IMG/VR virus record: IMGVR_UViG_3300033141_001877
Location: 1 to 24,327 of that record
Origin: a virus
Taxonomy: Duplodnaviria > Caudoviricetes
Reading direction: 5' to 3' (one strand)
Length of the DNA: 24,327 nucleotides
The notes below the pieces were generated by a model. It worked only from the letters and a program-made list of their open reading frames with translations. It did no database searches and had not been told where the DNA came from. How positions within the stretch are numbered: position 1 is the first letter of the stretch; each line of letters starts with the position of its first letter. Below are positions 1 to 24,109 of the stretch, piece after piece. Made by a program: the position numbers and the translations under genes.

Positions 1-169
1 TTACAACGTTTGCAGACTTCAACATAACGCCCGATGTCAGGTCCGGCTTTTTCTCCTGGACTATAACCGGCTTTTTCGGTTTTGTTTTTATGCTGCTCTT
101 ATTCCTTGTTACTTCAAGGCCTTTCTTTTCAACCTTCTTCTTAAGAGCCGCTTGCGACATTCGTTTCAT
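1..169 (-). CDS. Hypothetical Lys-rich protein, 5' part only (runs off the window edge)
   Basis: Read by hand. The ATG at 169 overlaps the TAA of the upstream gene (TAATG). The frame MKRMSQAALKKKVEKKGLEVTRNKSSIKTKPKKPVIVQEKKPDLTSGVMLKSANVV stays open to position 1. Confidence 0.65.
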   Translation of the reverse strand, partial: MKRMSQAALKKKVEKKGLEVTRNKSSIKTKPKKPVIVQEKKPDLTSGVMLKSANVV

Positions 170-3100: not shown

Positions 3101-3492
3101 TACGCCTGGCTCGGTCCTTCTTTTTTCTTGTATGGCTCAGGTTCGCTTTTTGCATAGCTTTTCATGTGTTCCGCTTCACCTATCGCACCCTGGGCCATAT
3201 CTCCTAACCCCTGGGCCGCATTGCGAAACATCTGTGTGCCAACTCTTTTAAATGTGAGTTCTGGGACTAATCCTGTAGCTGGGTCAACTTCGGCATAATC
3301 GGACTCTCCTTGTTCTTCGCCTTCGAACAAAGATTCGCCAAATTCCATGAAGGCACCGGCCATTTGTTTGCCAAGGCCCACAGCCTTTTGAGGCTCTTTC
3401 GGCTCAGGTTCTTCCCCTTCCCAGGTTATCTTTGTTGGATCTATTTCAGGGGGTTCGTTGTACCACGTTATTTTCTTTGGATTAATTGACAT
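169..3492 (-). CDS. Large polyvalent (probably virion-packaged/ejected) protein with an inorganic pyrophosphatase (InPase) domain
   Basis: 1107-aa ORF. The C-terminal third has the polyvalent-protein InPase signature NPSEKQKQAGNYLKG..IENPKGSQRKG...W...M.HHYGY...TEGKDGDQID.FVGP...YIVDQV...FDEHKVM.GF. The N-terminal half is Gly/Ala-rich and helical (GEGLEEYLQQ, GAVGGAMLTGG), as in podovirus DNA-transfer proteins. It lies downstream of the tail genes. Confidence 0.8.
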   Translation of the reverse strand: MSINPKKITWYNEPPEIDPTKITWEGEEPEPKEPQKAVGLGKQMAGAFMEFGESLFEGEEQGESDYAEVDPATGLVPELTFKRVGTQMFRNAAQGLGDMAQGAIGEAEHMKSYAKSEPEPYKKKEGPSQAYELRKPEIAFNVLSDTEKALFGKELRQAEKDKGSPLTSREREDLKRDYSVKIRDESIETYEKWVETLPEPLPGSSGIIETAAGGVSRFGPGMALTALNIPAGTISMFNQIYGQKRKELVDAGIDKELAREIGLLTSAINTPLEQAGSIFQIKMLKTIFSKTGAKMGFGKRLRQFIGVLGANITGEGLEEYLQQYPDEIANLYAANHEKTGAEIAKIVLNEFPAIHKKAKKAMKVGAVGGAMLTGGVQVAGSPFVIADYKRELKANKDEKETDLTRKTEQLKEALDGGQITREQLEGELKDLPKDDILYDAINEVLSTTKPTKAEKPTVEEPTTTDFQTRRRNQEKIKEFEAEQEEDQRVEKLGGIEEQITQAGEFITEKREEDKYWKGVEANIEQQRKEGEIAKGRKKYGARPTTLQQVEVAEEAERQANEKYWATVKTDIQEQQKKRDEGQPPVISEADRRVAKVPAPKKTDVALAGAGTTIELRPTERKSKVDESVGDSVLANSNLFGNRSNTKTLQSESFNSLKRDRQQMILSSVRSSFNDPQVLRAIIKTIPVDVMNGLVGSQWTPDGLLHNKTMLTHRLSIPSDVSIPKPVISFVDSLSSTIKRISARDATEKADLTFPGTPISTKSDSTIKTDILPDGRHIASSKIGDQEIKVDINPSEKQKQAGNYLKGAIHIQGMEIAIENPKGSQRKGVAPDGKKWSIEMKHHYGYFNRTEGKDGDQIDTFVGPDTESPNVYIVDQVEPGTGKFDEHKVMTGFSSEEAAKEGYLANYEEGWQGFGDITEMSVEKFKNWLSWGKQKKPVGYPTESWRSPTDKLEKTKAEKIVQPPASEKGKETWEMTLSEYESLHGKPRKGATSYTENTFHKNAVHTAINQGKPVPESVLKDYPDLQRKALPETPKTEKVAEKAPQEAKALLKREQIEITPEHGKGLKYESEVQISETGEVVKVKEDAGQALEDIDERILSLKILRDCI
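1096..1124 (+). promoter_or_regulatory. Candidate sigma70-type promoter for the antisense HNH gene
   Basis: TTGCTT (1096-1101), 17-bp spacer, TAATAT (1119-1124), ending 40 nt before the ATG at 1165. The consensus match is only partial. Confidence 0.3.
1165..1650 (+). CDS. HNH homing endonuclease (Cys4 zinc finger + HNH_3-type nuclease + C-terminal HTH), nested antisense inside the polyvalent protein gene
   Basis: Motifs CFNC..F...FCCVSC; EHRFVMEQTIGRPLASDEAVHHINGDSLDNRPENL; GFSIRAIAKKIGVSKNTI. An AGAGGA Shine-Dalgarno at 1153-1158 precedes ATG 1165, which I prefer over the TTG at 1096. 161 aa. Confidence 0.85.
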   Translation: MSTIRKYVCFNCGITFSRNWSSRKGQVRFFCCVSCRNSFDCGRKRINETDYRLRYRYVTRNGKPMGEHRFVMEQTIGRPLASDEAVHHINGDSLDNRPENLRIVERGSHRRKYHLLSVPLERIKTLRLQGFSIRAIAKKIGVSKNTITNRLVDLGFPLCRP

Positions 3493-7919: not shown

Positions 7920-10892
7920 TCAATTCTCCAGATCATCCCTGACGTACTGCCATTGTAATCCCCACACAATCGGCTCAAAGGCTCTCTCAACAGTATTGCC
8001 TGAAAGTTGAAACTTAAACCTGTACGACCATCCATATATATTTAAGGGAGCTGTAACCTTCGCCAACCTGAGATTGTCCGTGGCAAGGCTTATGTCGTTA
8101 AACACCGCACCCCCTGACGTGTTAGCCGTGTCTTGATAATTATAAACATCAAGGGTGTCCTCACTGTTCGCCCTGGTAATAATCTTTATCTGTCGGAGAA
8201 GTGTTTTGTCCCATATATTTTTGGATGGCAAGAAATCACCTGTAGTGAAGCTATAAAGCATTGTCGATCCAAAGCTGTCGCCATATTCTAACCGCATCAT
8301 ATAGCCTGTATCTATTCCGGCATACACATATTTATTACCCTCGCCGTCGGCAACCTGGAACGCAGCTTGTGGCGTTTCCGCTACCCCTGTATATTTTTTA
8401 AACCATTTTTTCTTTACTATATCGTAAGCCAGCCAAAGATTATTAGCGACCTGGGACGAACCGGAGGGGAGGAGGATATTGTATTCTCGATAAGTGGTGT
8501 CATACCAGCCCCTTGCATTTTCTAAATATTCAAAGTTGACACACACAGACTCGGCGGGATCAAAGTATTTATCAACCCCAGGAATAGGGAATAAAACAGA
8601 TCCATCAAACATAACCGGCCCTGAATGAGAAACCCAAAAGGCAACGTTTCTTTGAATACCCTGGACAGCTTCAAATCCAACCTCTGCCGTGGCCAAAGTT
8701 AAGGGAGCTGGACAACCAACCGTAAATGATACCGGAAACACCTTAAAATCTTCGGGAGTATCACCGGTTAAAATGTATGTGCTGGTTTCCTTAAGTGCCA
8801 GCCATATAGCAAAAACATTTGAACCGTATCTATTATAAAGTTGAGTGCCTGCTGTAAGAGTGTCAGAGTTGCCAAAATATAGAGACTGAAGACCGTCCAT
8901 ACTCGAATCAAACCCGTTAAAAACATCTGGTGCGTTCGAGGATGAATAATCAACCCTATTTCCCTCCTTTCCTTCGGTAAAAGCGCACAAAAGCACTCGG
9001 TTTTTATATACAGATGGAAACTTAAAGGGTTTTACGACTTTCTGTGCAGGTATTCCGGTGACAAGATCGACAAGAACCTCTGGATCTTCCGTTAAAGGAA
9101 CGCCCTTTGTCCCGGATAAAGTCGCGCTGAAAGTGAATTGATAGGCATAACCGGTCACACCAAACAACGTTATGGGGTGTTCATCTTCTATGTCAGGCGG
9201 ACTCCAAGAAATTAAGCCTGTCTTTCCAATGGTATCGCCTGCGTTGTCTGTTTCATCTATTAATGATGCACCTACGGTTGCCCAATCTGATCCGGTATGA
9301 TATTTAACAGTAGCGTCCGCCGCGTTTTCATTAATTAACCCCGCAAGCATTTGAAAACGAATACCAGCCATCCGGTCGCTGAACATAACCACAACGTTAT
9401 CTGTGCTTAAAAGGCCGTCTAAAACGCCACCGATAGGAATTTCGATATCTGATTGATAATTAACTGCGAGCGTATAATCTTCGAACTGAGAAGCAGACTC
9501 AACCTGGAACTGTATTGGTTGTCTTAAAACGCCGTCCCATACATCTACAACTGGTTGCCATGGTGCATCGGCTGAAACGTGGGAAATTTCAGCGCTACCG
9601 TCAGAAAGTATAAATAAATAAGCATAAAGGTAAATACCTTCCAAGTGGTACGGTTTGGCTATACTAACCGTTGAATCAAACGTCATTGAGCCGCTTTGCC
9701 CTAATGAATATGAAGTTACCCCTTTCGTGCCGTCGTCGAAGTTTGAAACTCCGGTAAATGCGTCTCCCGTCCATACAGCGCAAAGTGTTTGTGATCCAGC
9801 TGTGTTGACTGTTTTAATTGTATAATTAAAGCCCTGCACTGGCCGAGTAGTGAATATCATCCACAGCTTTCGGGTTCCAATAGGAATGATATTGCCTGCA
9901 GTATCAAGAGAATTATTAGCCTGTTCGGTATAGTCTATTGGATTATTAAAAGGGTAGCCAATGCTTTTAACCGAAAAGTTGTCAAAGTCACCCTCCGCCC
10001 CAAAAATACCAGATTTAAAAGAAAGTCCTCCGGTGCCTTGGGCAAGATAAGGAAGTGAGTATGCCCCGTTAGAATTAACAGAGCCTATTCTATAAGTATA
10101 TGCTTCTTCAAAAGTCCAATAATCTTCAATGTTTGCAGCATCAAAGGCAATGCGGTATAGATGCCCGGTTGTCATGGGTACATATGTGCTTGAAATGCCG
10201 CCTTCCAGACCAGATGTGCTTGCTGTTATGCTAAGATCGTCGGTTTCGTCCCATGAGGTAAGGTTGAAATTCTCCCAATTTGACGGCGACGAAAAGTCTC
10301 GATTTTCCTGGGCGGGTATTAGTTCGGAGCCCAACTGTTCTTCTACGGTAAACAGAGCCCCAATCCTGATTTCCTCGCCGCCGTAGATATAAGACTCTTT
10401 TCCATTACAATATGCCACGTTGCCTTGCGGAGCGTCTGAAAACCGGCCCAACCCTGCGCCTGCTGCGTCGATATGTATCGGCGCAGTTTCAAAGTTTCCC
10501 TGAGCTGGGACTACAGCTAAGTTTTGGAAGACTCTGCCGTTTCCTGAGCTGTCTTGTGAGTTAACAAGAACGTATGACTTTTGCGCTCCGTCTGTCCTGA
10601 GCTGGTGTCCATTTCTAATATCTGTGTACGTTGTAATGATAGATGTTGAAATTTCCGTATAGCCCAGCACTCCAACAGGATGGTTTGCGCCATACCGCAG
10701 ATTTACAATATCTGAAAAGTTTGAAGGTCCTATTTCCGCCGGGTCGTGATCAGGTAGCCATGCACCATCAAGCTTGAATTGCTCTTTGTGCAGCTTATCA
10801 TCTGGAATTTGAGACTGTTTTTGCTGTTCTTGTGCCAAAGCTCCTGAAAACAGAAAGAAAAACAGCGATATGTATATAAGTAATTTTTTCAT
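7920..10892 (-). CDS. Putative tail nozzle / tail tubular protein B-like protein with an N-terminal signal peptide and inserted beta-sandwich domains
   Basis: 990 aa, beta-rich, directly after the adaptor genes. It has a nozzle-like N-terminus (F.LDGAWLPDHDPAEIG...SDIVNL), propeller-like segments (YKNRVLL, VGCPAPLTL, FWVSHSGPVMFDG, WLAYDIVKKKW) and a typical C-terminus (FTTGDF...KTLLRQIKI...YRFKFQ). Starts MKKLLIYISLFFFLFSGALA. Confidence 0.7.
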   Translation of the reverse strand: MKKLLIYISLFFFLFSGALAQEQQKQSQIPDDKLHKEQFKLDGAWLPDHDPAEIGPSNFSDIVNLRYGANHPVGVLGYTEISTSIITTYTDIRNGHQLRTDGAQKSYVLVNSQDSSGNGRVFQNLAVVPAQGNFETAPIHIDAAGAGLGRFSDAPQGNVAYCNGKESYIYGGEEIRIGALFTVEEQLGSELIPAQENRDFSSPSNWENFNLTSWDETDDLSITASTSGLEGGISSTYVPMTTGHLYRIAFDAANIEDYWTFEEAYTYRIGSVNSNGAYSLPYLAQGTGGLSFKSGIFGAEGDFDNFSVKSIGYPFNNPIDYTEQANNSLDTAGNIIPIGTRKLWMIFTTRPVQGFNYTIKTVNTAGSQTLCAVWTGDAFTGVSNFDDGTKGVTSYSLGQSGSMTFDSTVSIAKPYHLEGIYLYAYLFILSDGSAEISHVSADAPWQPVVDVWDGVLRQPIQFQVESASQFEDYTLAVNYQSDIEIPIGGVLDGLLSTDNVVVMFSDRMAGIRFQMLAGLINENAADATVKYHTGSDWATVGASLIDETDNAGDTIGKTGLISWSPPDIEDEHPITLFGVTGYAYQFTFSATLSGTKGVPLTEDPEVLVDLVTGIPAQKVVKPFKFPSVYKNRVLLCAFTEGKEGNRVDYSSSNAPDVFNGFDSSMDGLQSLYFGNSDTLTAGTQLYNRYGSNVFAIWLALKETSTYILTGDTPEDFKVFPVSFTVGCPAPLTLATAEVGFEAVQGIQRNVAFWVSHSGPVMFDGSVLFPIPGVDKYFDPAESVCVNFEYLENARGWYDTTYREYNILLPSGSSQVANNLWLAYDIVKKKWFKKYTGVAETPQAAFQVADGEGNKYVYAGIDTGYMMRLEYGDSFGSTMLYSFTTGDFLPSKNIWDKTLLRQIKIITRANSEDTLDVYNYQDTANTSGGAVFNDISLATDNLRLAKVTAPLNIYGWSYRFKFQLSGNTVERAFEPIVWGLQWQYVRDDLEN

Positions 10893-11569
10893 TATTGCGT
10901 GGGCTCCTTCGGCATAGTAAGAAAGTCTTGCCTACTTCTATCAAGCTCCGCCTGGTACAGCGCCATGATCTTGGCAGATTTTTCCATCTGGTTGCTTTTG
11001 GCCCAGGCCTGGGCAACAACATACATAACAAGTGCTTTATCGTATATTGCTGGAATCGGAATTGAAGCGCTTATAATAATAGCCTCGGGCCTGGTTACTA
11101 AATAAACAGTAATTTTTTCAGTGGTTACGCCGGTCAATGCAGGATAAGCGCCAAGTTTCCCGGCCCAATCGTACCAATAAGCAGGCTCTCCTATGTTGCT
11201 TACAAGGCCGACACTTTCCGGAGCACCCCTGATAAGAGCTTTCGATACACCTGTTGCCGAAACATAATGAACCGCTTTTACAACAATATAGGTTGATGTA
11301 ATTGCATATTCGGTTTGATTTGCAATCAGGCTGATATCTTCTGTATTTTCGAGGCAGTGGCTTCTACTAACCAGGTCCACAAGACCGTCATTGAGCCAAC
11401 GCAACAGCCTTTCATCATTCCAAAATACATCTGAACCTGTGCCGCTAAGATACGATCTTGCGTTTTCGATTATTGTTTCGGCTGTCGTTGAGGACGTTTG
11501 CTGAGATCCTGCAAAAGCTGAAACCGTTATAAATAAAGCGATAATTATTATAGATATTTTTTTCAGCAT
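10892..11569 (-). CDS. Phage head-tail adaptor/tail ring protein (DUF6682-like), paralog 2, with signal peptide
   Basis: Adaptor pattern TIIENARSYL...FWNDERLLRWLNDG...L.ANQTEYAI...P.YWY...YP...IPAIYDKALVMYVVAQAWAK. Starts MLKKISIIIIALFITVSAFA. Confidence 0.75.
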   Translation of the reverse strand: MLKKISIIIIALFITVSAFAGSQQTSSTTAETIIENARSYLSGTGSDVFWNDERLLRWLNDGLVDLVSRSHCLENTEDISLIANQTEYAITSTYIVVKAVHYVSATGVSKALIRGAPESVGLVSNIGEPAYWYDWAGKLGAYPALTGVTTEKITVYLVTRPEAIIISASIPIPAIYDKALVMYVVAQAWAKSNQMEKSAKIMALYQAELDRSRQDFLTMPKEPTQ

Positions 11570-11587
11570 AATAAACCTCTTTTGAAT

Positions 11588-12262
11588 TTATTGTTTCGGC
11601 TTTTCCGTTGTTACAAGAAGATCCTGCCGGTACCGATCAAGTTCAGCATGATATCGGCCTATCGCCTGGCCATATTTACTCATTTGCCTATCCTTCGCCC
11701 AGGCCTGAGCAACAATGTATAAAGTAAGCGCTTTGTCATATATTGCCGGAGTCGGCACAGCGACACCGGAAGCTATGGCCGTAGGTCTTGTTACGAGGTA
11801 AAGAGTAACCTTTTCGCTCGTAACGCTGCTAAGAGTAGGATAAACCCCTATTTCCCCGGCCCAATCATACCAATGCACAGGCACCTGCACGTTTTCAATC
11901 CAGCCAACTTCCGCCGGTTTTCCTGTTTTCAACCCTCTTTCTATATCGTTAGAGTCAACATATCGTACTGCTTTCACGACAAGATAGGTTGATGTAATGG
12001 AATATTCCACCTGGTTCGCGACAAGATTGATATCTTCTGTATCTTCGAGGCAATGACTCCGGCCTACTAAATCAACAAGACCATCGTTAAGCCACTGTAA
12101 CATTTCAACATCGGTCCAAAACGTAGCCGTTGCTTCGTTTAGATATGCCCTGGCATTTACAATGATTGCTGATGCAAGAGTTGAAGACGCTTGCTGAGAT
12201 CCCGCGTGAGCAAAACTCACAGCCATAAAAACGATTAAAATTGCATGAATGATTTTTTTCAT
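11588..12262 (-). CDS. Phage head-tail adaptor/tail ring protein (DUF6682-like), paralog 1, with signal peptide
   Basis: Same pattern (IIVNARAYLNE...FWTDVEMLQWLNDG...PAIYDKALTLYIVAQAWAKD). Start reassigned to ATG 12262 (GAAGGT upstream, 1 nt after the previous stop). Starts MKKIIHAILIVFMAVSFAHA. Confidence 0.75.
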   Translation of the reverse strand: MKKIIHAILIVFMAVSFAHAGSQQASSTLASAIIVNARAYLNEATATFWTDVEMLQWLNDGLVDLVGRSHCLEDTEDINLVANQVEYSITSTYLVVKAVRYVDSNDIERGLKTGKPAEVGWIENVQVPVHWYDWAGEIGVYPTLSSVTSEKVTLYLVTRPTAIASGVAVPTPAIYDKALTLYIVAQAWAKDRQMSKYGQAIGRYHAELDRYRQDLLVTTEKPKQ

Positions 12263-12263
12263 A

Positions 12264-12599
12264 TTACCTTCTTTCGGCAAGCTCTATAACAACCTTAGCC
12301 CCGGCTGTATAAACACCATCGCCAAAATCTAAGAAAGGGTGTTTCTTTTTGCCATGAAAATACTTTATTTTTGAATCGTAAACGTCTGCACAAAGCGGAT
12401 TGAAGATTTCGGGACCGTCTTCATCCCCTTCTTTTATAACACATTTATCACCTGTTGCCGCTGGTGAGAACTGTATTGACATAATTTTCAACCCGCGGTC
12501 GTTAGGATCGTCGGCATAGCTCCAATCCGAATCAATCGCACCTGCACCCACACCGGCGATTTCAATGGTCAAGTTGTTTTCAGTGACTTCGTTTGCCAT
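12264..12599 (-). CDS. Hypothetical small beta-rich protein, probably structural
   Basis: 111-aa ORF with AAGGGA upstream, within the structural operon. Confidence 0.55.
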   Translation of the reverse strand: MANEVTENNLTIEIAGVGAGAIDSDWSYADDPNDRGLKIMSIQFSPAATGDKCVIKEGDEDGPEIFNPLCADVYDSKIKYFHGKKKHPFLDFGDGVYTAGAKVVIELAERR

Positions 12600-13203: not shown

Positions 13204-13440
13204 TTAATCTCCTTTATGAAAGTAATTTTTAATATGGTAAAGCGCCCTTCTAAGCTTCCATCGTATTCCCGGAAATAAAATCGTTTTAACAATCTTGCCA
13301 TTTTTCAGCTTTGCAAAAGATCCCGGCCATACCGCCTTTTCATCTTTAAAGTCTTTATATCTGAAGGCTATCTTTCTACCATTGCTTATTTGATAGAACC
13401 CCTTGCCTGTTTGTGGATCGTATCTGTCAATTTTTATCAT
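13204..13440 (-). CDS. Small basic protein with a cold-shock/OB-fold-like N-terminus
   Basis: 78 aa, coupled to the upstream gene (TAATG). KIDRYDPQTGKGFYQISNGRKIAFRYKDF parallels the cold-shock pattern VKWFNxxKGFGFIxxxxGxDVFVHFS. Confidence 0.45.
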   Translation of the reverse strand: MIKIDRYDPQTGKGFYQISNGRKIAFRYKDFKDEKAVWPGSFAKLKNGKIVKTILFPGIRWKLRRALYHIKNYFHKGD

Positions 13441-15809
13441 TAGTCCAACCTCGTTGATAAGCCTAATCTATTTAAGCCCTTTCCAGCCCCAGCATCCGAA
13501 AAGACATCATAAACAATATTGGCGTCCGAAAGAGCTTTGGTTGATTCTATATCAAAGACGAGTTCCAGGTCGCTTAGAGTCTTTATATTAATGTCAAAAA
13601 CATGCTCCGAGTCAGAATTCATTTTATTAAGAACATCGAATAGCGCTTCCAGATCCGAATTAACTTTGTTGTATATATCGTAAACAGCTTCAAGATCCGA
13701 ATCCATCTTTTCGAATTGATCATAAACAAGTTCCAGGTCACTTAGAATCCTATGATAAACGTCATATTTAAGAACAGAGTCGGCATTTATCTTATTTAGA
13801 ACGTCGAAAACAAACTCAATGGACGAATCGATTCTGCCGATCATGTCATAAACAAGCTCTGAGTCCGACGTTACCTTGCCCACTACATCAAAAACGGCCT
13901 CAATATCGCTTGATATCTTTTCGAATTGATCATATTTAAGGGTAATATCAGCATAAATTGAATTTAAAACGTCAAAAACTCCCTCAATATCAGAGGAAAT
14001 AATATTTTTAACGTCATATACGAGCTCTGAGTCGGACGAGACTTGCCCGGCCTGGTCATAAACCGCCTCCATATCGCTTGATACACTCTCGCGCTGATCA
14101 TAAACGATAATCGAGTCTGCCCTGACTGTGTTGATAATATCAAATACCATCTCAACATCAGATCTTGCCACGCTAAATATATCAAAGACCGCTTCAATGT
14201 CAGATATAACCCAGCCCCAAGTATCATAGACAAGCTCTAAATCAGAGGATACCTTGTTAAATATATCAAAGACCGCTTCAGCATCGGAAGATATCTTGTT
14301 GCGCACATCATAAACCGTCTCAATGTCGGAATTTATCTTGTTAAATATGTCAAACACTGACTCTGAGTCAGAGGTTGTCCTCCCGGACTGATCATAAACA
14401 AGCTCAACGTCTGATGTTATTTTATTATAAACGTCAAAGACCAACTCGACATCGGAAGCAAGCTTATTGTAAACATCAAAAAGCGATTCTGAATCCGACG
14501 TTATCCTGGAATAACCGTCATATACAAGTTCGAGGTCGGAAGTAACTTTCGTCGTGCCAGAGGCAGGCGTAAAAACAATAGTAAGATCTGCATCACCTTC
14601 AAGCCACCAAATCCTTTGATTATATGCGCTGTTAACATCTTCCCAAACAAATGCCAACTTGTCGCCACTTTCAAAAGGATCTGCACCATCATCGCCATCA
14701 ATTCTTTGCTGAATAAACAAATTTAACTCTGGACTGTCTTGGCTTCCAGTGCTTCCTTCATCCCAATCTACCGTCACAGAAGTATGTTTCGTTAACTGAG
14801 AAGGTCTGTTGCTTGAGCCCCACGTTCCGGGAGATCTGTTATCAATCAACTTAAGAATAGCGTCGCAACCAGAGCCATCAACTCCGGTTACATCGATATT
14901 TATCTTTGTTCCGGTGTTTATTGTTGCTCCCGGCAAATCAGTGTCGGTAACTGTCCACATAAGACCGGAGTCAAGCACAGAGTCTTCGAAATCACCACAA
15001 ACAATATAGCCGACGTTATCATCGTACCAGGTAGTATCATCTTGTTCGAAACCGTCGTCAGCATCCGTTACAGTAGTTGGTCCCCAAGTATCAGGGCTTA
15101 CAACTATATCGTCATTATCCGAAAGACTAAAAGCACCTATAAAAATATCAAGCTTCTTGCCGCCTGCCTGATCCTCAACGGTGTAGTTCGAATGTATATC
15201 TATTTCGTCAGAGTCCCATTGAAACTTAATATTATCAAAAAGCAGCTTATAAATCCCAAGATTGTCGCCGCTTAAAGTTGTGGTCGGAACTTCAACCATA
15301 TCACCGGCAATACCTGAATTTTGAAACCTGATCCGATAGAGATTCGCGTTAACCACATGAAGGCGGAAAGTATTTTTGACTTTCTCGAACGGTCTGAAAA
15401 GAAACTCAACGTCAAGAGTGTTGCCGTCGCCATCAGAAAGATTACGGGTAATTACGCAATGCTCGTCTTGCTGGTCTACCGTCAACCCTATCTGCCACAA
15501 ATCAAGTGTGCGCCATTGTGGAGCATCCCAATACTGGACCTCAAACCTTTGATCATCTATAAGAGTCTCAATAGAACCAAACTCCCGAATGATCTGATAG
15601 CCTGCTGAATAAAACTCACAAGACAGCTCTCCGTAACGGATAGACTGACTTGGTTCATCCCATACATAGGGAGCGAAAACACCATCACCAAGATCAACGT
15701 TTTTCCGGCCCATAAAGGTTTTAAGCACCCTCTGGCCTGTGTCCTGGCCGTCCTGAGTAACCTTAAACTTACGGCAATCTGGCGTATATGTTAGGTGTTC
15801 CAGTGGCAT
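13440..15809 (-). CDS. Putative fibre/adhesin protein: two N-terminal beta domains plus a 25 x 14-aa repeat stalk
   Basis: 789 aa, very acidic. The middle domain resembles DNRLRE/CBM96-like sandwiches (DADDGFE...G...SGLMW...LPGATI...SPEL...IQQ...DLTIVF). The C-terminal ~350 aa are tandem repeats. Confidence 0.6.
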   Translation of the reverse strand: MPLEHLTYTPDCRKFKVTQDGQDTGQRVLKTFMGRKNVDLGDGVFAPYVWDEPSQSIRYGELSCEFYSAGYQIIREFGSIETLIDDQRFEVQYWDAPQWRTLDLWQIGLTVDQQDEHCVITRNLSDGDGNTLDVEFLFRPFEKVKNTFRLHVVNANLYRIRFQNSGIAGDMVEVPTTTLSGDNLGIYKLLFDNIKFQWDSDEIDIHSNYTVEDQAGGKKLDIFIGAFSLSDNDDIVVSPDTWGPTTVTDADDGFEQDDTTWYDDNVGYIVCGDFEDSVLDSGLMWTVTDTDLPGATINTGTKINIDVTGVDGSGCDAILKLIDNRSPGTWGSSNRPSQLTKHTSVTVDWDEGSTGSQDSPELNLFIQQRIDGDDGADPFESGDKLAFVWEDVNSAYNQRIWWLEGDADLTIVFTPASGTTKVTSDLELVYDGYSRITSDSESLFDVYNKLASDVELVFDVYNKITSDVELVYDQSGRTTSDSESVFDIFNKINSDIETVYDVRNKISSDAEAVFDIFNKVSSDLELVYDTWGWVISDIEAVFDIFSVARSDVEMVFDIINTVRADSIIVYDQRESVSSDMEAVYDQAGQVSSDSELVYDVKNIISSDIEGVFDVLNSIYADITLKYDQFEKISSDIEAVFDVVGKVTSDSELVYDMIGRIDSSIEFVFDVLNKINADSVLKYDVYHRILSDLELVYDQFEKMDSDLEAVYDIYNKVNSDLEALFDVLNKMNSDSEHVFDINIKTLSDLELVFDIESTKALSDANIVYDVFSDAGAGKGLNRLGLSTRLD
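13494..14546 (-). repeat. Coding tandem repeat, 25 units of 42 bp / 14 aa
   Basis: Consensus (I/V)xSD(L/I/S)E(L/A)V(Y/F)D(V/I/Q)xxK. Counted from VTSDLELVYDGYSR to ALSDANIVYDVFSD: 351 codons = 25 x 14 + 1. Confidence 0.9.
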
Positions 15810-17658: not shown

Positions 17659-18744
17659 CTATGCGTTCGGATCTGCGATATAAGTATCAACTGCTATTAC
17701 ACCGAAATCCAAGCTGTTAAACCTGGCCTTGGAACAACCGAACATAGCCCCTGCGGTAATGACAAGAGCGTTACCACGGTCGTCTGTTTCCTCATTCCAG
17801 GAGTAACGGCCAAAGGCTCCGCCTCCGCCCCATGCGATTACAGCCGCCTGTGCGCCTAAGAAAAGCGCTCTTGCAGCATCAACGTCGCTACCTGAACCAT
17901 AATCATCAAAACGAATTACATTTCGGTGTTTATGCAGGATAACGTCGGCGTATTCGCCCAAAGCGTTATGATACAGGTGATTTCCGTCACCGCGCAGGCC
18001 TGCGTTCTTCTGAATATCAACCCAATCATTCTCAGAGGTTGACGTTCTTAGTGAGTAAGCCTGGAAGGTGTGCATAAGGAAGACAAACTTATTCTCTCCC
18101 TGTACGCGGAAAGGCTGGATCATTGGATCGAGAGTTTCAGCTTTTGCGACCAGCTTTTCAACAATTCCCAAAGCCAGGCCATCAGCCGAATCAAGATCGC
18201 CCTTACCGGTAGCAGCGCCGCCATAAATCTGATGTGCTGCGTCCGGGGCTCTTAAACTGTTGTTTGCTCGCCCTGCCCATGAAAGCCCAACATGGAAGGA
18301 AGTATCAACACCACGAGCCCCAGCCAGGTACATCATAAGCTGTTGGTCGTAATCTTCTGCCCACCATGTAGAAAGAGCGTTACGGCCTTCAAGCCGCATA
18401 TTGTAGGGCACTCTCTGCTCTGACATTTTGCCCTTTGATTTCGTGCCTTTACGTCTTTGGCTGATGAAAACAAAATCATTAAAGAATTCCAGCGCTTCCT
18501 CTGCGCTCGTTCCTTCAATTTGATCATCATCCTCAGCACCGTCTCCGCCGAGTTTCATACGCAGGGCAAAGATGATTTTCTCACCAGCCTGCTTATTGAG
18601 CTCAGTTTTGACTTTAATAAGGGCATCGTCGCCCGTACCCATAAACTTGCGGAAATATTGCTTTACTTCCGCTTCTTTGGCAAGGCTGGTTGACCAGCGC
18701 TGAACTGCCAAAGGATCATTTAATGCAAATTCTGTTGCAGCCAT
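17659..18744 (-). CDS. Major capsid protein, N4-gp56 / DUF4043 family
   Basis: 361 aa with family-typical motifs NDPLAVQRWS...YF.KFMG...EL.KQAGE.I.F.L...L.G.G...EG..EEAL.F, MSEQR..YN.R, RALFLGAQA..IAWG and KARFNSLDFGVIAVD. AAGGAG RBS; follows the scaffold gene. Confidence 0.92.
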   Translation of the reverse strand: MAATEFALNDPLAVQRWSTSLAKEAEVKQYFRKFMGTGDDALIKVKTELNKQAGEKIIFALRMKLGGDGAEDDDQIEGTSAEEALEFFNDFVFISQRRKGTKSKGKMSEQRVPYNMRLEGRNALSTWWAEDYDQQLMMYLAGARGVDTSFHVGLSWAGRANNSLRAPDAAHQIYGGAATGKGDLDSADGLALGIVEKLVAKAETLDPMIQPFRVQGENKFVFLMHTFQAYSLRTSTSENDWVDIQKNAGLRGDGNHLYHNALGEYADVILHKHRNVIRFDDYGSGSDVDAARALFLGAQAAVIAWGGGGAFGRYSWNEETDDRGNALVITAGAMFGCSKARFNSLDFGVIAVDTYIADPNA

Positions 18745-18767: not shown

Positions 18768-19907
18768 CTATCCGCCTAAAGCTTTACGTTCCGCATCGGG
18801 AGACATTTTGTGGAAATCCCCTTCCGAAAGGTTTGTCTTGTCGTCAATTTCCCCACCTTCTCCCGGTATATTGCCTATAAAGCGGCCATCACCGCGTGCG
18901 GTTTCTTGAAATTTCTGTAAGAACTCCTTGTTTTCTTCTTTTACCTCTGCCTCAACTTCTTTCCTTATTGTGGCTCGCAGAGTAGCACTTTCATTCTTCG
19001 CGACCATAGACTTGTTGATAAATGTCACAAGAGAAGCTGCACCTTCACCCATAAGAAAGGCTTTTTTGCTTCCTGGGAGTATAAATTTCGTGGCAGGGTT
19101 GGTCATGGCATTGAGATATGCAGCGTTAAAACCACTTTCCTCTGCATACTCTACAAGATTATTCATAACCTCTTTGCCTTCATCATATATTCCCGGAACG
19201 GCTGTTTCAATTTCAGCAACAACTTTATTAATATTTCCAATCTCGGCTTGTTCTGCCTTGGTTCGATTGTCTTTCGTTGTTTTATCAGCACGGTCCTTGC
19301 CTTCCTGTTGCCTGAGCTTTCGCTCATAGAGTGTTGCAGCGTCAGGATCTTCCTCTAAAAGTTCCTCAAATTCATCATCAGACAAATCTTTTAGGTCCTC
19401 TTTCTCAATTTCATCACCTTCAGGCTTGAGTTCCCCTGTGCCTTCTTCAATTAGTGCCTGAAGTGTCTCGATTTCACCTTTCAGCTCTAAAACTGTCCGT
19501 CGCTCCTTTTGAAGCGCAGGTAATGCGACAAAGCCTTTTGGCGGAGGTTTGGAATAGTCGGGCGGTTCCTCTTCCTCTGCGGGCTTGCCTTCGCCTTCAA
19601 TCGGTTTTGCTTCCCCTTCTATTACAGGGGCCTTAACCTCTCCGGCTTCACCTGGCTTTGCTTCGTCAGGTTTTTTTGCTTCTGCGCCTTCCTCTTTGGG
19701 TTTGGCTTTGTCGTCTATCGACTTGGAGCTGGCCGGTTTTTCCTCCGGTGACGGTTCCTCTCCCTTAAGTTCAGACTCGGACACTGATTCATTGTCGAAA
19801 AGTGAGTCAAACTTAATCGGCTTACCTTGATCTGTTGGTAAATCGGTTATGTTTGTCGGACTTGCCTCTGCCTCTTTTACGATTACTGCTGCTTCTGCGT
19901 CTGCCAT
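18768..19907 (-). CDS. Capsid scaffolding protein
   Basis: 379 aa, highly acidic Glu/Lys/Pro-rich N-terminus, VALPALQKERR coiled-coil motif, C-terminal SEGDFHKMSPDAERKALG helix. Directly upstream of the capsid gene with an AGGAGG RBS. Confidence 0.8.
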   Translation of the reverse strand: MADAEAAVIVKEAEASPTNITDLPTDQGKPIKFDSLFDNESVSESELKGEEPSPEEKPASSKSIDDKAKPKEEGAEAKKPDEAKPGEAGEVKAPVIEGEAKPIEGEGKPAEEEEPPDYSKPPPKGFVALPALQKERRTVLELKGEIETLQALIEEGTGELKPEGDEIEKEDLKDLSDDEFEELLEEDPDAATLYERKLRQQEGKDRADKTTKDNRTKAEQAEIGNINKVVAEIETAVPGIYDEGKEVMNNLVEYAEESGFNAAYLNAMTNPATKFILPGSKKAFLMGEGAASLVTFINKSMVAKNESATLRATIRKEVEAEVKEENKEFLQKFQETARGDGRFIGNIPGEGGEIDDKTNLSEGDFHKMSPDAERKALGG

Positions 19908-19923
19908 TACATCCTCCTGTTTA

Positions 19924-20004
19924 GGTCATTGGACGAGTGACCCCTGCCGTTATCGATGGACAGGTCAACGAATTATATACTTCAGACCGTTTTTCGTTAC
20001 GGCC
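19924..20004 (-). promoter_or_regulatory. Structured 5' leader of the scaffold gene (three short hairpins)
   Basis: On the minus strand: GGCCGU-aacgaaaa-ACGGUC, CCUGUC-caucgauaac-GGCAGG and GGUCA-cucguccaa-UGACC, ending 5 nt before the RBS. Confidence 0.5.
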
Positions 20005-20012
20005 AACGATGC

Positions 20013-20068
20013 AAAATAAAAAAGCCCCATCAAATAAAAATCGTTAGAATTTTATCCGAGGAGGCTTT
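20013..20068 (-). terminator. Long-stem intrinsic terminator/attenuator candidate between the accessory cluster and the scaffold gene
   Basis: Minus-strand AAAGCCUCCUCGGAUAAAA pairs with UUUUAUUUGAUGGGGCUUU (about 18 bp including G-U pairs, one mismatch) and runs into UUUUUUAUUUU. Confidence 0.6.
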
Positions 20069-20159
20069 ATGCGTTTTCGGCTTGGCCCGTAGTGCTCAAC
20101 CTAATGCGATCCATGTTAATAAGGTTCGAGGTTACAGGTGTTATGTGTTTATTTTTAAG

Positions 20160-20912
20160 TCATGAGTTCCTATCGTCAAAGTATTTGTGTGCAAATATCT
20201 TCCTTCCGCCAACATCAAACAGCGGGTTTTCGTTTATATAGTTAAACGGAATTTTATTCTTTAGTAAAAAAGCCCTGGCTTCGTTCTCGAAGTTCCCGCT
20301 TCTACAGGTCCATATTATAATAATGTTTTCCTGGTTTTGCCATAAGAGCTTGATCTTATTCACCGTTTCCGGGATAACCGGCCCAATCGTAGGAAAGTCG
20401 TTTTCAACAATGGTACCGTCAAAGTCAAACGCGTAAAACTTATATCTTTCTGGTCCTGTGTAGATTACGTCAAAACCTTCATCAAGAGACGGCTTTTCAT
20501 AGTTGTTAGACATAGTATGGAATACAGTCTCCCAGGTTGCTGCGGGGATCCCGTTAGAATCATCCTGTCTGCGTTCTAAGCACTCTGGATAGCCTGGTCC
20601 CCAATCATAAGCTATAATCTTACAACCGAATCGGTTGCCATACTCAACATACCTGGCTCGCCTTGCTTTATCCATATTGGTACGATCAACGACAACATCA
20701 TTCCCGGTCCTTAGCGCCGGTAAAATGGCCGTCGCTTCTATATTTTGGTAAATCTCCTTCGTTTTATAATCATATAGCCCATATTCGCCACCCCCGACCA
20801 TTTGTTGAATCGAATCCATATTGACTATAACGTCTCCATCTTTGGCGAATCTGTTTGCCAGTACTGATTTACCGCTGCCTATATTACCAATAAAGACATT
20901 TAATGTACTCAA
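20160..20912 (-). CDS. Polynucleotide kinase/phosphatase-like protein (AAA_33 P-loop kinase + HAD phosphatase)
   Basis: Walker A GNIGSGKS, VVVDRTNM...R, HAD motif FDFDGT, IIIWTCR and YFDDR. TTG start overlaps the previous stop, with GGGGAG upstream. Confidence 0.8.
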   Translation of the reverse strand: MSTLNVFIGNIGSGKSVLANRFAKDGDVIVNMDSIQQMVGGGEYGLYDYKTKEIYQNIEATAILPALRTGNDVVVDRTNMDKARRARYVEYGNRFGCKIIAYDWGPGYPECLERRQDDSNGIPAATWETVFHTMSNNYEKPSLDEGFDVIYTGPERYKFYAFDFDGTIVENDFPTIGPVIPETVNKIKLLWQNQENIIIIWTCRSGNFENEARAFLLKNKIPFNYINENPLFDVGGRKIFAHKYFDDRNS

Positions 20913-21007
20913 ACTTTCTCCCCTTTTTCAAACTTTTCAAGCAGCTTCACAAGGTGTAAGGCTATTCTTTTTAATATCTTAACGATTGTTTTTGTTTCTT
21001 CAGTCAT
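20909..21007 (-). CDS. 32-aa amphipathic helical peptide (absent from the ORF track)
   Basis: Read by hand: MTEETKTIVKILKRIALHLVKLLEKFEKGEKV. Coupled at both ends (TAATG and TTGA). Confidence 0.65.
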   Translation of the reverse strand: MTEETKTIVKILKRIALHLVKLLEKFEKGEKV

Positions 21008-21288
21008 TATATTACCCGAATTAGGTGCTTTTTATCTTTTCCCATAATTGCGTCAAAGTATGAATTGGACTTCGCTTCTTTATAAAAAGATTTAGACCAG
21101 ACTTTCGCTGCGAGCTTGTTATTAACCGCTACGACTCCATAATCTTTATTGTTGAACCTGACCTTCCCGGGACCTGTGATTACACCTCCGGCAATAACAG
21201 GCTTAGGAGCTGCAAGCAACGCCTTTGGAGCGACCAGGGCGAGCCCGGCTAAAACTCCAAGTTTTTTAAGAAAGATTCGTCTATTCAT
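21007..21288 (-). CDS. Tat-signal protein carrying circularly permuted major-capsid fragments
   Basis: MNRRIFLKKLGVLAGLALVAPKALLA is an RRxFLK twin-arginine signal. The remainder aligns without gaps to the capsid C-terminus and then the capsid N-terminus (see findings). Coupled at both ends. Confidence 0.75.
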   Translation of the reverse strand: MNRRIFLKKLGVLAGLALVAPKALLAAPKPVIAGGVITGPGKVRFNNKDYGVVAVNNKLAAKVWSKSFYKEAKSNSYFDAIMGKDKKHLIRVI

Positions 21289-21581
21289 TTACTTACAACC
21301 TTGATATCAGGTTTCTTTTCTTCCTCTTTCTTTTTAATGTTCACATCAACCAGGGTAGCCGTGAATCTCAACCGTGAAACGTTCGTAACTGAAACTTCAT
21401 AGACGAACGGGCCGATGGTAAGTTGTAATCCAACCGGAGGAACGAAAGCCTGCTTTTCCTTTAAGGGAAGGCTTAGAAGCTCCTTTATTCGCAGTTTAGC
21501 GTTCAAAGGTACATTGTCGGCCTCTTTGATCTTTAACGATTCCTGCTTACCGCTGCCTATGATCTTATTCTCTGGTTCCAT
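21285..21581 (-). CDS. Hypothetical protein
   Basis: 98-aa ORF with a GAGGT RBS, coupled to the next gene by ATGA. Confidence 0.65.
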   Translation of the reverse strand: MEPENKIIGSGKQESLKIKEADNVPLNAKLRIKELLSLPLKEKQAFVPPVGLQLTIGPFVYEVSVTNVSRLRFTATLVDVNIKKKEEEKKPDIKVVSK

Positions 21582-21963: not shown

Positions 21964-22058
21964 TAAATTCCTCCCCTAAATACAAGCTGCGCGATACCAA
22001 ACAGTATCAATGCAAACAAAAAGCCCACTGCAAAGTCTATCAATTTGGTCCAGCTCAT
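21963..22058 (-). CDS. 31-aa single-TM peptide (absent from the ORF track)
   Basis: Read by hand: MSWTKLIDFAVGFLFALILFGIAQLVFRGGI. The ATG overlaps the portal stop (ATGA) and the TAA overlaps the next ATG. Confidence 0.65.
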   Translation of the reverse strand: MSWTKLIDFAVGFLFALILFGIAQLVFRGGI

Positions 22059-24109
22059 TGAATAGCCCCCTGGGGTTTAGATATGTGCTCTAATGCTTTC
22101 TGTGTCATTTCAAAGCCTTTCGCGATTGCATCCACCCTGAATTGATCACCTTTGAGCTTCGCTTCTTCCATATCTATTTTGGCATCTATTAATATTTTCT
22201 GTATTTTGGCCTTAAGCTCAATATTTTCAAGTTGTTTTTGGTTCAGTTCCAGGTGGATACCAGCCTTCTGAAGTTGCTCGGCTTCCTGTTGTTTCTTTTG
22301 AGCCGCCTCCATTTGTTTCTGATTTCTATCCTTAATTTCTTCTGGCGTCAAGTCTTCATCCTCATACTTCTCACCTAACAATGGTTTAATCTTAGCAAGT
22401 AGCATATCTTTGTTTGGAATATTAGACATTTCGAACGCCATGGACATCAATTGAGGGATGATTTCCGGGGGAGATTTCTTGACCCACTCAATAATCAAGT
22501 TCATGTTTTGTTCACGGACAGTATCGCTCTGTGGTTGATCTGATATGACCGTATCATACTTGCCCTGAGTGATATCATTCCGAATTGTAATCTGTTTATT
22601 CTCGCCAATAACCTTTTGATTAAGCTGAACAAATCTTTCAGCGCCACTTAATCTATCGGTTATCCTCAACACCTTTGGAGCAGACCAAAATCCTTGAACA
22701 TTGGCCACTACCTGCTCACCAATCATGTGTAAGGATCTGCGCTTATTATCAAATAAAGTAGCTGTTGTGGTTGCGCCCTGGGTAATTTTCTTTTCAAGGG
22801 CTATACCGGAAAGTGCAGGCGTTTTAAATCCAGAGCTTTCACTGTTGGCCCCGGACATTTCCTGGATCTCTCGTTCATCCTGCTGTAAGATTGCGGTCTG
22901 TGAGGGTGCAAGTTCAGCTTGTTCGTGAATCTTTATTTTATCTATCATTCCTTTTTTAACAACAACAAAGCCGTCTAACTTGTTTGCTTCTTCATAAACT
23001 CGCTGCAGGCCGTCTTTATCCTTTGCAACACCTTCCTCTACCGTTACTCTCCTGGATTTTAGGAAAGCAAGCGCCATGGACCGTCTTTTATTAACTTCTT
23101 CATCCTGGCCCATTATTTGTTTTGGCACTCCGTATGGAGTATTAAACCTGTCAATATATCCAAGGAAGGGAATAAACGGATATTCATCATGCGGGAACGG
23201 TGAGCGCTGTTGCATTAATATTAAATCATCAATGAAGGTACAGACATACATTTTCTTAACTGTTGCCATAACGACCTGTTGCGCCTGTTGAACGATTTGG
23301 AATTGTTCGTTCAGATCTAATTCATCCAACTCGATCACGGTACCGTCCAAGAAGGATGCAAACGTCCGCGTTTCGTCCATAGGATACCACATTTCTACAG
23401 GCCTTACCCTTTTCCTCTCTGCCTCAACCCAACCGGATCCGGCCATTTGTCGCCTGTTTTCTTCGATATAGCTTGCTTCATCATCAAAAAAAGAGCTGTA
23501 TGTGTCTGACTGTGCGCCTGATAGCTCGTCAAACTTGGCTTGAAGCGCTTGTGACTTCTCTTTAAACATCGCCTTAACAGAGGAAAGGTCAACCCAACGC
23601 TGTTGAAAGACATATTTTGTGGAATCAGGGCTCCACCATGGCGGAGAAAAAGGATCTCCCCACATTTCTTTCCAATCACGGTACTTAAGGGTAATCTTTT
23701 CCTTGCGAGGATCACGGTTAAGAGTTGGAGACAGACAGCCAAAGCCAGGTATAATCTGATCTTTAAAGGCCTGGGATATAAGATATGTGCCGCTGCATTG
23801 ATCCATTATAAACTTAATGCTCTCGGTCATTATCTGAGATACTTCGGAATCTTTGATCGTCCTGGCCTTCGCCGTGATATCATATTTATTGATAGCTTCA
23901 TATCCCAACAATAGATTGACCGCAGGAAATGTTCTATTAATGGTGACAGGATCGATCCCAGCATCAATGGCAGCGTCATAATCCTCTTGCGTCCATTGAG
24001 CCTTACCACCATCATACATTTCTGAACAACGCCATGCTTGCGCTCTCCAATCCCTTGCCGCCCATTGAGCTTCTTGGACCCATGTATTTAATGTTGCTAT
24101 TTCAATCAT
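22055..24109 (-). CDS. Portal protein, P22-like
   Basis: 684 aa directly after the terminase. Motifs WR......Y.G..QW, P.TINR..P.VN...G, AF.D.II.GFG, YPFIPF.G, PYGV......Q.EVNKRRS, SGIA, NDITQGKYD.VI...P...TVR, and a C-terminal Gln-rich barrel helix. Confidence 0.92.
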   Translation of the reverse strand: MIEIATLNTWVQEAQWAARDWRAQAWRCSEMYDGGKAQWTQEDYDAAIDAGIDPVTINRTFPAVNLLLGYEAINKYDITAKARTIKDSEVSQIMTESIKFIMDQCSGTYLISQAFKDQIIPGFGCLSPTLNRDPRKEKITLKYRDWKEMWGDPFSPPWWSPDSTKYVFQQRWVDLSSVKAMFKEKSQALQAKFDELSGAQSDTYSSFFDDEASYIEENRRQMAGSGWVEAERKRVRPVEMWYPMDETRTFASFLDGTVIELDELDLNEQFQIVQQAQQVVMATVKKMYVCTFIDDLILMQQRSPFPHDEYPFIPFLGYIDRFNTPYGVPKQIMGQDEEVNKRRSMALAFLKSRRVTVEEGVAKDKDGLQRVYEEANKLDGFVVVKKGMIDKIKIHEQAELAPSQTAILQQDEREIQEMSGANSESSGFKTPALSGIALEKKITQGATTTATLFDNKRRSLHMIGEQVVANVQGFWSAPKVLRITDRLSGAERFVQLNQKVIGENKQITIRNDITQGKYDTVISDQPQSDTVREQNMNLIIEWVKKSPPEIIPQLMSMAFEMSNIPNKDMLLAKIKPLLGEKYEDEDLTPEEIKDRNQKQMEAAQKKQQEAEQLQKAGIHLELNQKQLENIELKAKIQKILIDAKIDMEEAKLKGDQFRVDAIAKGFEMTQKALEHISKPQGAIQ

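Follow-up and report, generated by a model that had tools for sequence, protein, structure and literature searches.

A phage gene that joins a twin-arginine-type leader to two reordered pieces of the major capsid protein

Introduction

Why would a tailed phage carry, among its head genes, a small gene that sets an export-type leader in front of two capsid pieces in reversed order? Such a gene lies at 21007..21288 (-) of the 24,327-nucleotide stretch of Caudoviricetes DNA analysed here (the window), and it encodes a 93-residue protein (the mini, P0001) composed of the leader, a C-terminal capsid piece and an N-terminal capsid piece. A sequence-only reading of the window had described this architecture and had proposed three roles for it: a decoy for capsid-sensing defences, a tether that anchors procapsids at the membrane, and an inhibitor of a competing phage.

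Results

Genome setting and neighbouring genes

The window corresponds to G000:C123:17876-42202 within a 62,246-base contig that was phage sequence throughout and identical to the record IMGVR_UViG_3300033142_001129. The ends of the contig divide one helicase gene, which suggests that it represents a complete circular genome. The genes on the minus strand follow the order terminase, P22-like portal, small-gene cluster, kinase-phosphatase gene, acidic scaffold-like gene and N4-gp56-family capsid. The portal (22055..24109 (-); PF16510, E 1e-104) and the acidic 379-residue gene before the capsid (18768..19907 (-)) form the upstream and downstream bounds of the accessory interval, respectively; the latter is probably the scaffold, judging from its position, and had no family match. 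The major capsid protein has 361 residues (17659..18744 (-)) and belongs to the N4-gp56 family (TIGR04387, E 9e-41; PF13252; PDB 8H89, E 1e-87). As the sequence-only reading had stated, the mini gene is intact and coupled on both sides, with a 4-nt overlap with an upstream 98-residue gene to which no function was assigned (21285..21581 (-)) and a 1-nt overlap with a downstream 32-residue ORF (20909..21007 (-)) that this reading had left unmentioned. No tyrosine integrase was found on the contig or among 30 further ORFs scanned, promoter and terminator scans returned nothing near the start of the mini gene, and an Rfam search gave no match of note. The genome bin that holds the contig encodes a TatC adjoining a TatA/B-like gene, bin membership being the only link between contig and host.

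Several other features were observed in the window. A non-coding stretch before the scaffold-like gene (about 19908-20150 (-)) was strongly conserved with the locus L056, where the flanking genes have dS of at least 1; it is a possible late promoter or structured leader RNA and had no Rfam match. An HNH/HTH ORF (1096-1650 (+)) lies antisense within a 1107-residue ORF (169-3492 (-)) that carries an InPase domain. A tandem pair of SU10-type adaptor paralogues occupies 10892-12280 (-), and the C-terminal half of a 789-residue ORF (13440-15809 (-)) is a run of acidic repeats, each of about 15 residues.

Architecture of the mini

Residues 1-26 of the mini (21211..21288 (-)) form a twin-arginine-type leader made up of NRRIFLK, 12 uncharged residues and Pro-Lys. 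The twin-arginine (Tat) consensus is S/T-R-R-x-F-L-K near the N-terminus, which mini residues 2-8 (N-R-R-I-F-L-K) fit, and the RR pair, F, L and K were invariant in seven aligned members of the family. Against TIGR01409 the leader scored 16.2 bits, slightly below the cut-off of 16.7, and there was no Pfam match at E <= 0.1. The h-region of Tat signals is uncharged and hydrophobic and has about 13 or more residues; the uncharged h-region measured 12 residues in five of the seven members and 16 and 18 in the other two, and 12 chromosomal Tat-like leaders of the bin had a median of 18. No A-x-A signal-peptidase site after the h-region was conserved across the seven members, so that an uncleaved anchor would be likelier than a released protein. 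The leader was the best-conserved part of the family (21 of 26 residues identical to the orthologue described below), and one relative, P0005, bears the NCBI name of a twin-arginine signal protein.

The C-terminal capsid piece (residues 30-56, corresponding to capsid 327-353; 21121..21201 (-)) was delimited by profile match, and the N-terminal piece, from the N-arm (residues 54-92, corresponding to capsid 7-45; 21013..21129 (-)), had a profile iE of 8e-10 in a single comparison. The corresponding stretches of the capsid gene are 17686-17766 and 18610-18726. The ungapped identities claimed by the sequence-only reading were reproduced, namely 11 of 21 residues between mini 35-55 and capsid 332-352 and 16 of 38 between mini 55-92 and capsid 8-45, and a profile built from 34 related capsids found both pieces in the reversed order that this reading had expected. 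BLASTP of the mini against the capsid gave E 5e-8 and 7e-7 for the two pieces, and their local scores of 67 and 71 were equalled by 0 of 5,000 shuffles each (shuffle maxima 42 and 47). When either piece was compared with every six-frame segment of the 62-kb contig, nothing but the mini itself matched it better than the capsid. PHROG 334 (major head) matched mini residues 52-93 (E 7e-6); TIGR04387 and PF13252 did not match the mini, nor did any Pfam family. A DNA-level role of the mini as a target-site decoy was rejected, as third-codon identity to its own capsid was 8/21 and 14/38.

By homology to the GP4 capsid (PDB 8H89, E 1e-87), the C piece comprises the last P-domain strand and the start of the C-arm; the N-arm of the GP4 capsid spans residues 2-47, according to the domain limits in PMC9698820. 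The model of the phage's own capsid (pLDDT 83) has strands at 326-339 and 349-355, and its strands and helices agree with the GP4 domain map. For the mini, AlphaFold gave a pLDDT of 52 and a pTM of 0.32 from a 7-row alignment, shallow alignments being known to score low as well, and the Atlas model had a pLDDT of 0.42, with all Atlas matches <0.9. A fold search with the low-confidence mini model returned no match. The models thus predict no folding of the mini protein, which, lacking a predicted fold, is best seen as a leader followed by short linear pieces.

Relatives, orthologue and selection

Searches of 5.8 billion proteins returned 11 proteins at E <= 0.01, eight of which carry capsid pieces. 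The C-then-N order (capsid 327-353 followed by 7-45) was common to P0001, P0003, P0007 and P0011, whereas other members contained the N piece only (P0009), a longer C piece (P0005), capsid 83-99 (a weak match, iE 0.003) with the C piece (P0004), or capsid 244-278 with the C piece (P0008). P0014 gave a weak terminase match (iE 0.0045), and the passengers of P0012 and P0013 match none of the capsid, portal and terminase profiles; their leader is similar but reads KRNEF and has no RR pair. Capsid pieces are, on this comparison, swapped between family members behind one leader.

P0007, encoded in L056, has the same upstream and downstream genes as P0001 and likewise lies ahead of a scaffold-like gene: the 98-residue gene, which is also present in L170 and L155, precedes it, and a clear counterpart of the 32-residue ORF follows it. 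Between P0001 and P0007, dN was 0.33 and dS 1.63, which gives a dN/dS of about 0.2 for a single pair (L056 being the sole orthologue with DNA obtained) with synonymous sites near saturation. A ratio near 1, by which the sequence-only reading would have recognised a decaying duplication junction, was thus not seen, and the value points to purifying selection. The neighbouring genes gave dN and dS of 0.19/1.64 and 0.31/1.01 in the same comparison (ratios of 0.12 and 0.31). Within the pair, the leader had a dN of 0.10 against 0.38 for the passenger, the pN/pS of the passenger was 0.43 (bootstrap 0.29-0.63), and both orthologues still match the capsid profile at dS >1.6.

The retained W, YF and MG residues had been taken as a sign of selection. 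They are weak evidence that likeness to the capsid itself is selected: W17, S18, F31, M35 and G36 were invariant in the four minis compared, but identity from mini to mini was not significantly higher at capsid-conserved columns (Fisher p 0.09-0.84; Spearman p 0.08). Residues kept in minis had at first correlated with capsid conservation (rho 0.44, p 6e-4), a result that was set aside because it measures agreement with the capsid consensus itself, the comparison of minis with one another being fairer. Nor was capture confined to the best-conserved parts of the capsid, for the pieces ranked at the 40th, 54th, 82nd, 85th and 100th percentile.

Since the C piece was closer to another capsid (14/21 identical) than to its own (11/21), the donor need not be the capsid of the same phage. 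The minis also share residues that are rare among 38 near capsids, and both observations together argue for an old fusion rather than a fresh copy. A scan of genome contigs for the mini gave two leader-only matches, and tblastn against 50,697 deposited phage records gave no match at E <= 1, so that no cultured model was found.

Optional presence at the head-gene locus

We compared 46 loci with capsids 59-75% identical, 28 of which span portal to capsid. RR-leader genes were present in the portal-capsid interval of one of these 28 loci (L170), and the other 27 had none; the mini is an optional gene of patchy distribution. L170 contains two RR-leader genes, and in one of them another leader precedes capsid 79-106 and, after it, 6-35, an order that is again reversed. 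Homologues thus adjoin head genes in both L056 and L170; the sequence-only reading had suggested looking for them near portal genes. Across 11,275 six-frame segments drawn from these loci, L056 and the phage's own contig, capsid profiles matched no ORF outside the capsids at iE < 0.1 except three RR genes; L170 is the sole blind match, because the other two were known beforehand.

Two further ORFs were observed in L201. A 113-residue ORF between terminase genes (L201:1465-1806 (-); G000:C123:43464-43805) matches, at 11 of its first 16 residues, the linker of P0004 assigned to capsid 83-99; compared directly with the capsid, the ORF gave no significant match (E 0.076), and it is possibly a leaderless capsid-piece gene. 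A 285-residue ORF adjoining the amidase gene (L201:4606-5460 (-)) had no PHROG match and looks caspase-like by eye.

A wider class of RR-leader minis

Two pattern-only scans of viral contigs for MNRRxFLK yielded 81 and 82 loci with 70 and 69 distinct ORFs. After ORFs outside 55-250 residues were left out (9 and 13), 61 and 56 remained, including some near-duplicates. An own-locus match was counted when, after removal of the leader, a mini matched a large ORF of its own locus at E < 1e-3. Such matches were found for 7 of 61 and 3 of 56 RR minis, compared with 0 of 112 and 0 of 92 neighbouring small ORFs (p 5e-4 for the first set, 0.052 for the replication set, and 3e-5 for the pooled 10/117 against 0/204), and shuffles of the first set gave 0/305. 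The ten targets were six major head proteins, one ribonucleotide reductase and three proteins without a family. PHROG matches at E < 0.01 were obtained for 7/61 and 4/56 RR minis, with capsid, sheath, scaffold, tail collar, tail fibre, virion protein and DnaB-like helicase among the passengers. Altogether, a recognisable piece was present in 19 of 117 RR minis, and none was recognised in the other 98. This tally leaves out resemblances of further minis to capsid, portal and terminase that were judged by eye. In the L241 mini (P0010) a reductase motif (12/25 identical to the phage's own gene) is joined to a helicase P-loop, a string that no assembly role explains. Searching with motif regexes failed to distinguish minis from controls (Walker A 2/117 versus 5/204), and a cross-locus search separated them weakly (short best matches in 7/117 minis versus 4/204 controls). 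The mini is one member of a much wider phage class, which the sequence-only reading had missed, and its design recurs in unrelated phages.

The scans also returned genes of other kinds. A 524-residue terminase large subunit carries an RR-FLK leader at its start (L082:10001-11572 (+)). A conserved family of 224-237 residues with RR-FLK N-termini (L204, L206, L208, L211, L222, L223, L224, L233, L264 and L280) had no PHROG match and no core-protein pieces, and is distinct from the fragment-bearing minis. In L243, L247, L274 and L283, several genes share a nearly identical RR leader in front of unrelated passengers, which resembles a reusable leader cassette. An RR mini at L219:10355-10963 (-) had no family match, and regexes alone pointed to a glycine motif like that of capsids and to a motif resembling the terminase Walker B.

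Discussion

On these sequence comparisons, the mini is a real, selected and optional gene, and its design has evolved repeatedly. As to its role, we tentatively favour the possibility that it serves as bait for capsid-recognising host proteins, which are then removed via Tat. The mini would be made late, together with the head genes, and its capsid pieces would bind capsid-recognising proteins of the host or of resident elements, such as immune sensors or assembly blockers. The leader would be recognised by TatC and bring the complex to the Tat translocase, where it would be pinned at the membrane by the uncleaved anchor or exported, as in hitchhiker transport, and removal of the bound proteins would increase phage yield.

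We favour bait because the passenger is under selection, because pieces are exchanged behind one leader and, in L170, reversed pieces stand behind a different one, and because own-locus matches occur across the class with passengers drawn from conserved core phage proteins. The gene is also placed to be made with the capsid and is patchy, as anti-defence genes are. The known triggers of STAND sensors include capsid, portal, tail parts and helicase (PMC13581612), and we count the overlap of the passengers with these proteins in favour of bait. For Lit/Gol, a 29-residue capsid peptide is enough as a trigger (PMC3014915). Proteins without a signal are exported through Tat when bound to one that has it, engineered partners included (PMC4273604), and Tat tolerates small unfolded substrates (PMC13673990). 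The TatC beside a TatA/B-like gene in the bin was counted on the same side, with the host link given by bin membership only. The main objection is that Avs7, the one capsid-sensor structure considered, binds a folded HK97 shell subunit by shape, over 3,700 square angstroms (PMC13581612); it reads a large folded surface, and the mini has no predicted fold. A capsid mimic could also set off a sensor rather than block it. Further points against bait are that conservation of the mini is not significantly tied to that of the capsid, that 98 of 117 RR minis have no recognisable piece and the replication set alone gave p 0.052, that motif regexes were non-discriminating and the cross-locus search weak, and that the non-virion passenger comes from one gene.

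Somewhat unlikely, in our judgement, is that the leader acts by itself, occupying TatBC or disturbing the membrane late in infection, with the passenger a tolerated, partly hydrophobic plug taken from neighbouring genes. The high conservation of the leader (dN 0.10 versus 0.38) fits this, as do the free swapping of passengers, including those of P0012 and P0013 that match no tested profile behind a similar leader, the 98/117 RR minis without a recognisable piece and the lack of a significant tie to capsid conservation; moreover, unfolded proteins that carry a signal and expose hydrophobic stretches become stuck late in Tat transport and impair growth (PMC13673990). A mere plug is harder to reconcile with purifying selection on the passenger (pN/pS 0.43), with the capsid-profile matches of both orthologues at dS >1.6, or with in-frame capsid pieces that occur behind RR leaders and are absent from neighbouring small genes. 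It is unlikely that the mini binds capsid subunits by arm or strand exchange, whether to poison the assembly of a co-infecting relative or to clear free subunits; the leader would then keep the complex at the membrane. Both pieces are indeed arm and strand elements, the N-terminal loop 14-19 of GP4 pairs with the neighbouring subunit (PMC9698820), the majority of recognisable passengers come from virion proteins, Tab is a precedent for defence by blocked assembly (PMC10884400), and the C piece is nearer to other capsids than to its own. On the other hand, a mini coupled into the gene run of its own capsid risks self-poisoning, the contig without tyrosine integrase makes no lysogen-stage role evident, and binding to capsid subunits would not account for the reductase and helicase pieces in L241. 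Assembly proceeds in 27 of 28 relatives with no RR gene between portal and capsid, which argues against a tether for the phage's own procapsids and makes this the least likely of the three roles first proposed.

Two other explanations fared worse. Export or surface exposure of the peptide as a signal or ligand acting beyond the cytoplasm, such as on neighbouring cells or the timing of lysis, is very unlikely: the leader resembles a Tat signal and Tat can let small unfolded substrates through, but no cleavage site is conserved, terminase-, helicase- and reductase-like pieces have no reason to be outside, and no receptor gene was identified. That the gene is a decaying duplication junction without function is hardly credible. 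Although it is optional and its predicted structure is of low confidence, its dN/dS of about 0.2 resembles that of its neighbours (0.12 and 0.31), the coupled frame is intact in a syntenic orthologue at dS >1, and the same junction recurs in four proteins.

Returning to bait, a broader version would have uncultured phages repeatedly building strings of immune-watched epitopes from core proteins (capsid, terminase, sheath, helicase and reductase) on Tat leaders and ejecting the sensors by hitchhiker transport; we regard this joint claim as improbable. The literature search supported the earlier statement that the design has no described equivalent, within sources available in part and with a mention in a supplementary table still possible: neither phage-encoded Tat substrates of this kind nor decoys made from pieces of a phage's own core proteins were found. 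The main text of the EVADES preprint (bioRxiv 10.1101/2025.06.06.658234) contains no mention of capsid, twin-arginine, signal peptide or export, and the phage mentions in the accessible part of a 2026 Tat review (PMC13673990) are unrelated to such minis. The design has so far been annotated only as 'twin-arginine signal domain protein'. If bait is correct, phages would have a new means of defeating pattern recognition in bacterial immunity, and the passengers would tell which epitopes are under immune surveillance in unculturable hosts. The string of epitopes, if true, would be an anti-defence principle of a new kind and would provide a natural map of host-recognised phage peptides. Action by the leader itself would still be a first case of phages targeting the Tat translocase.

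Among known systems, CapRel-SJ46 is reportedly a capsid-triggered defence, and satellite capsid-remodelling proteins are virion-assembly blockers. Like Tat signal peptides and hitchhiker systems (TIGR01409, PF10518; HybO-HybC and PaoABC; PMC4273604), the mini has an N-terminal RR-x-FLK, a short hydrophobic stretch and a basic residue after it, and as the signal-bearing chain it could by analogy carry a bound partner. It differs from Tat substrates in being phage-encoded, in having neither a folded or cofactor-bearing passenger nor a conserved cleavage site, and in scoring below the cut-off. Its pieces share homology with two parts of N4-gp56/HK97-fold capsids, the N-arm and the last P-domain strand plus C-arm (TIGR04387, PF13252, PDB 8H89), yet it holds about 66 of 361 residues, reversed and without E-loop, spine helix or A-domain core, and cannot form the fold.

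Capsid-triggered defences such as Lit/Gol (PMC3014915) and Avs7/8/10 (PMC13581612) represent a selective pressure that capsid bait would answer; they are host sensors rather than phage decoys, and the folded surface recognised by Avs7 is missing from the mini. Ocr, Tad and Acb (PMC12409349, PMC13728456, bioRxiv 10.1101/2025.06.06.658234) are also small accessory phage proteins that titrate immune components. They mimic DNA, soak up nucleotides or bind sensors via folds of their own, in which the mini differs. It shares with decoy-type anti-defence proteins that it is small, accessory, patchy (1/28) and under selection (dN/dS of about 0.2). Like Tab (PMC10884400), the mini possibly acts on the assembly of a rival phage, and such blockers are also candidate targets of bait. 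Whereas Tab is expressed constitutively from a prophage, the mini lies in the head gene run, is built of target-derived pieces and carries an export-type leader.
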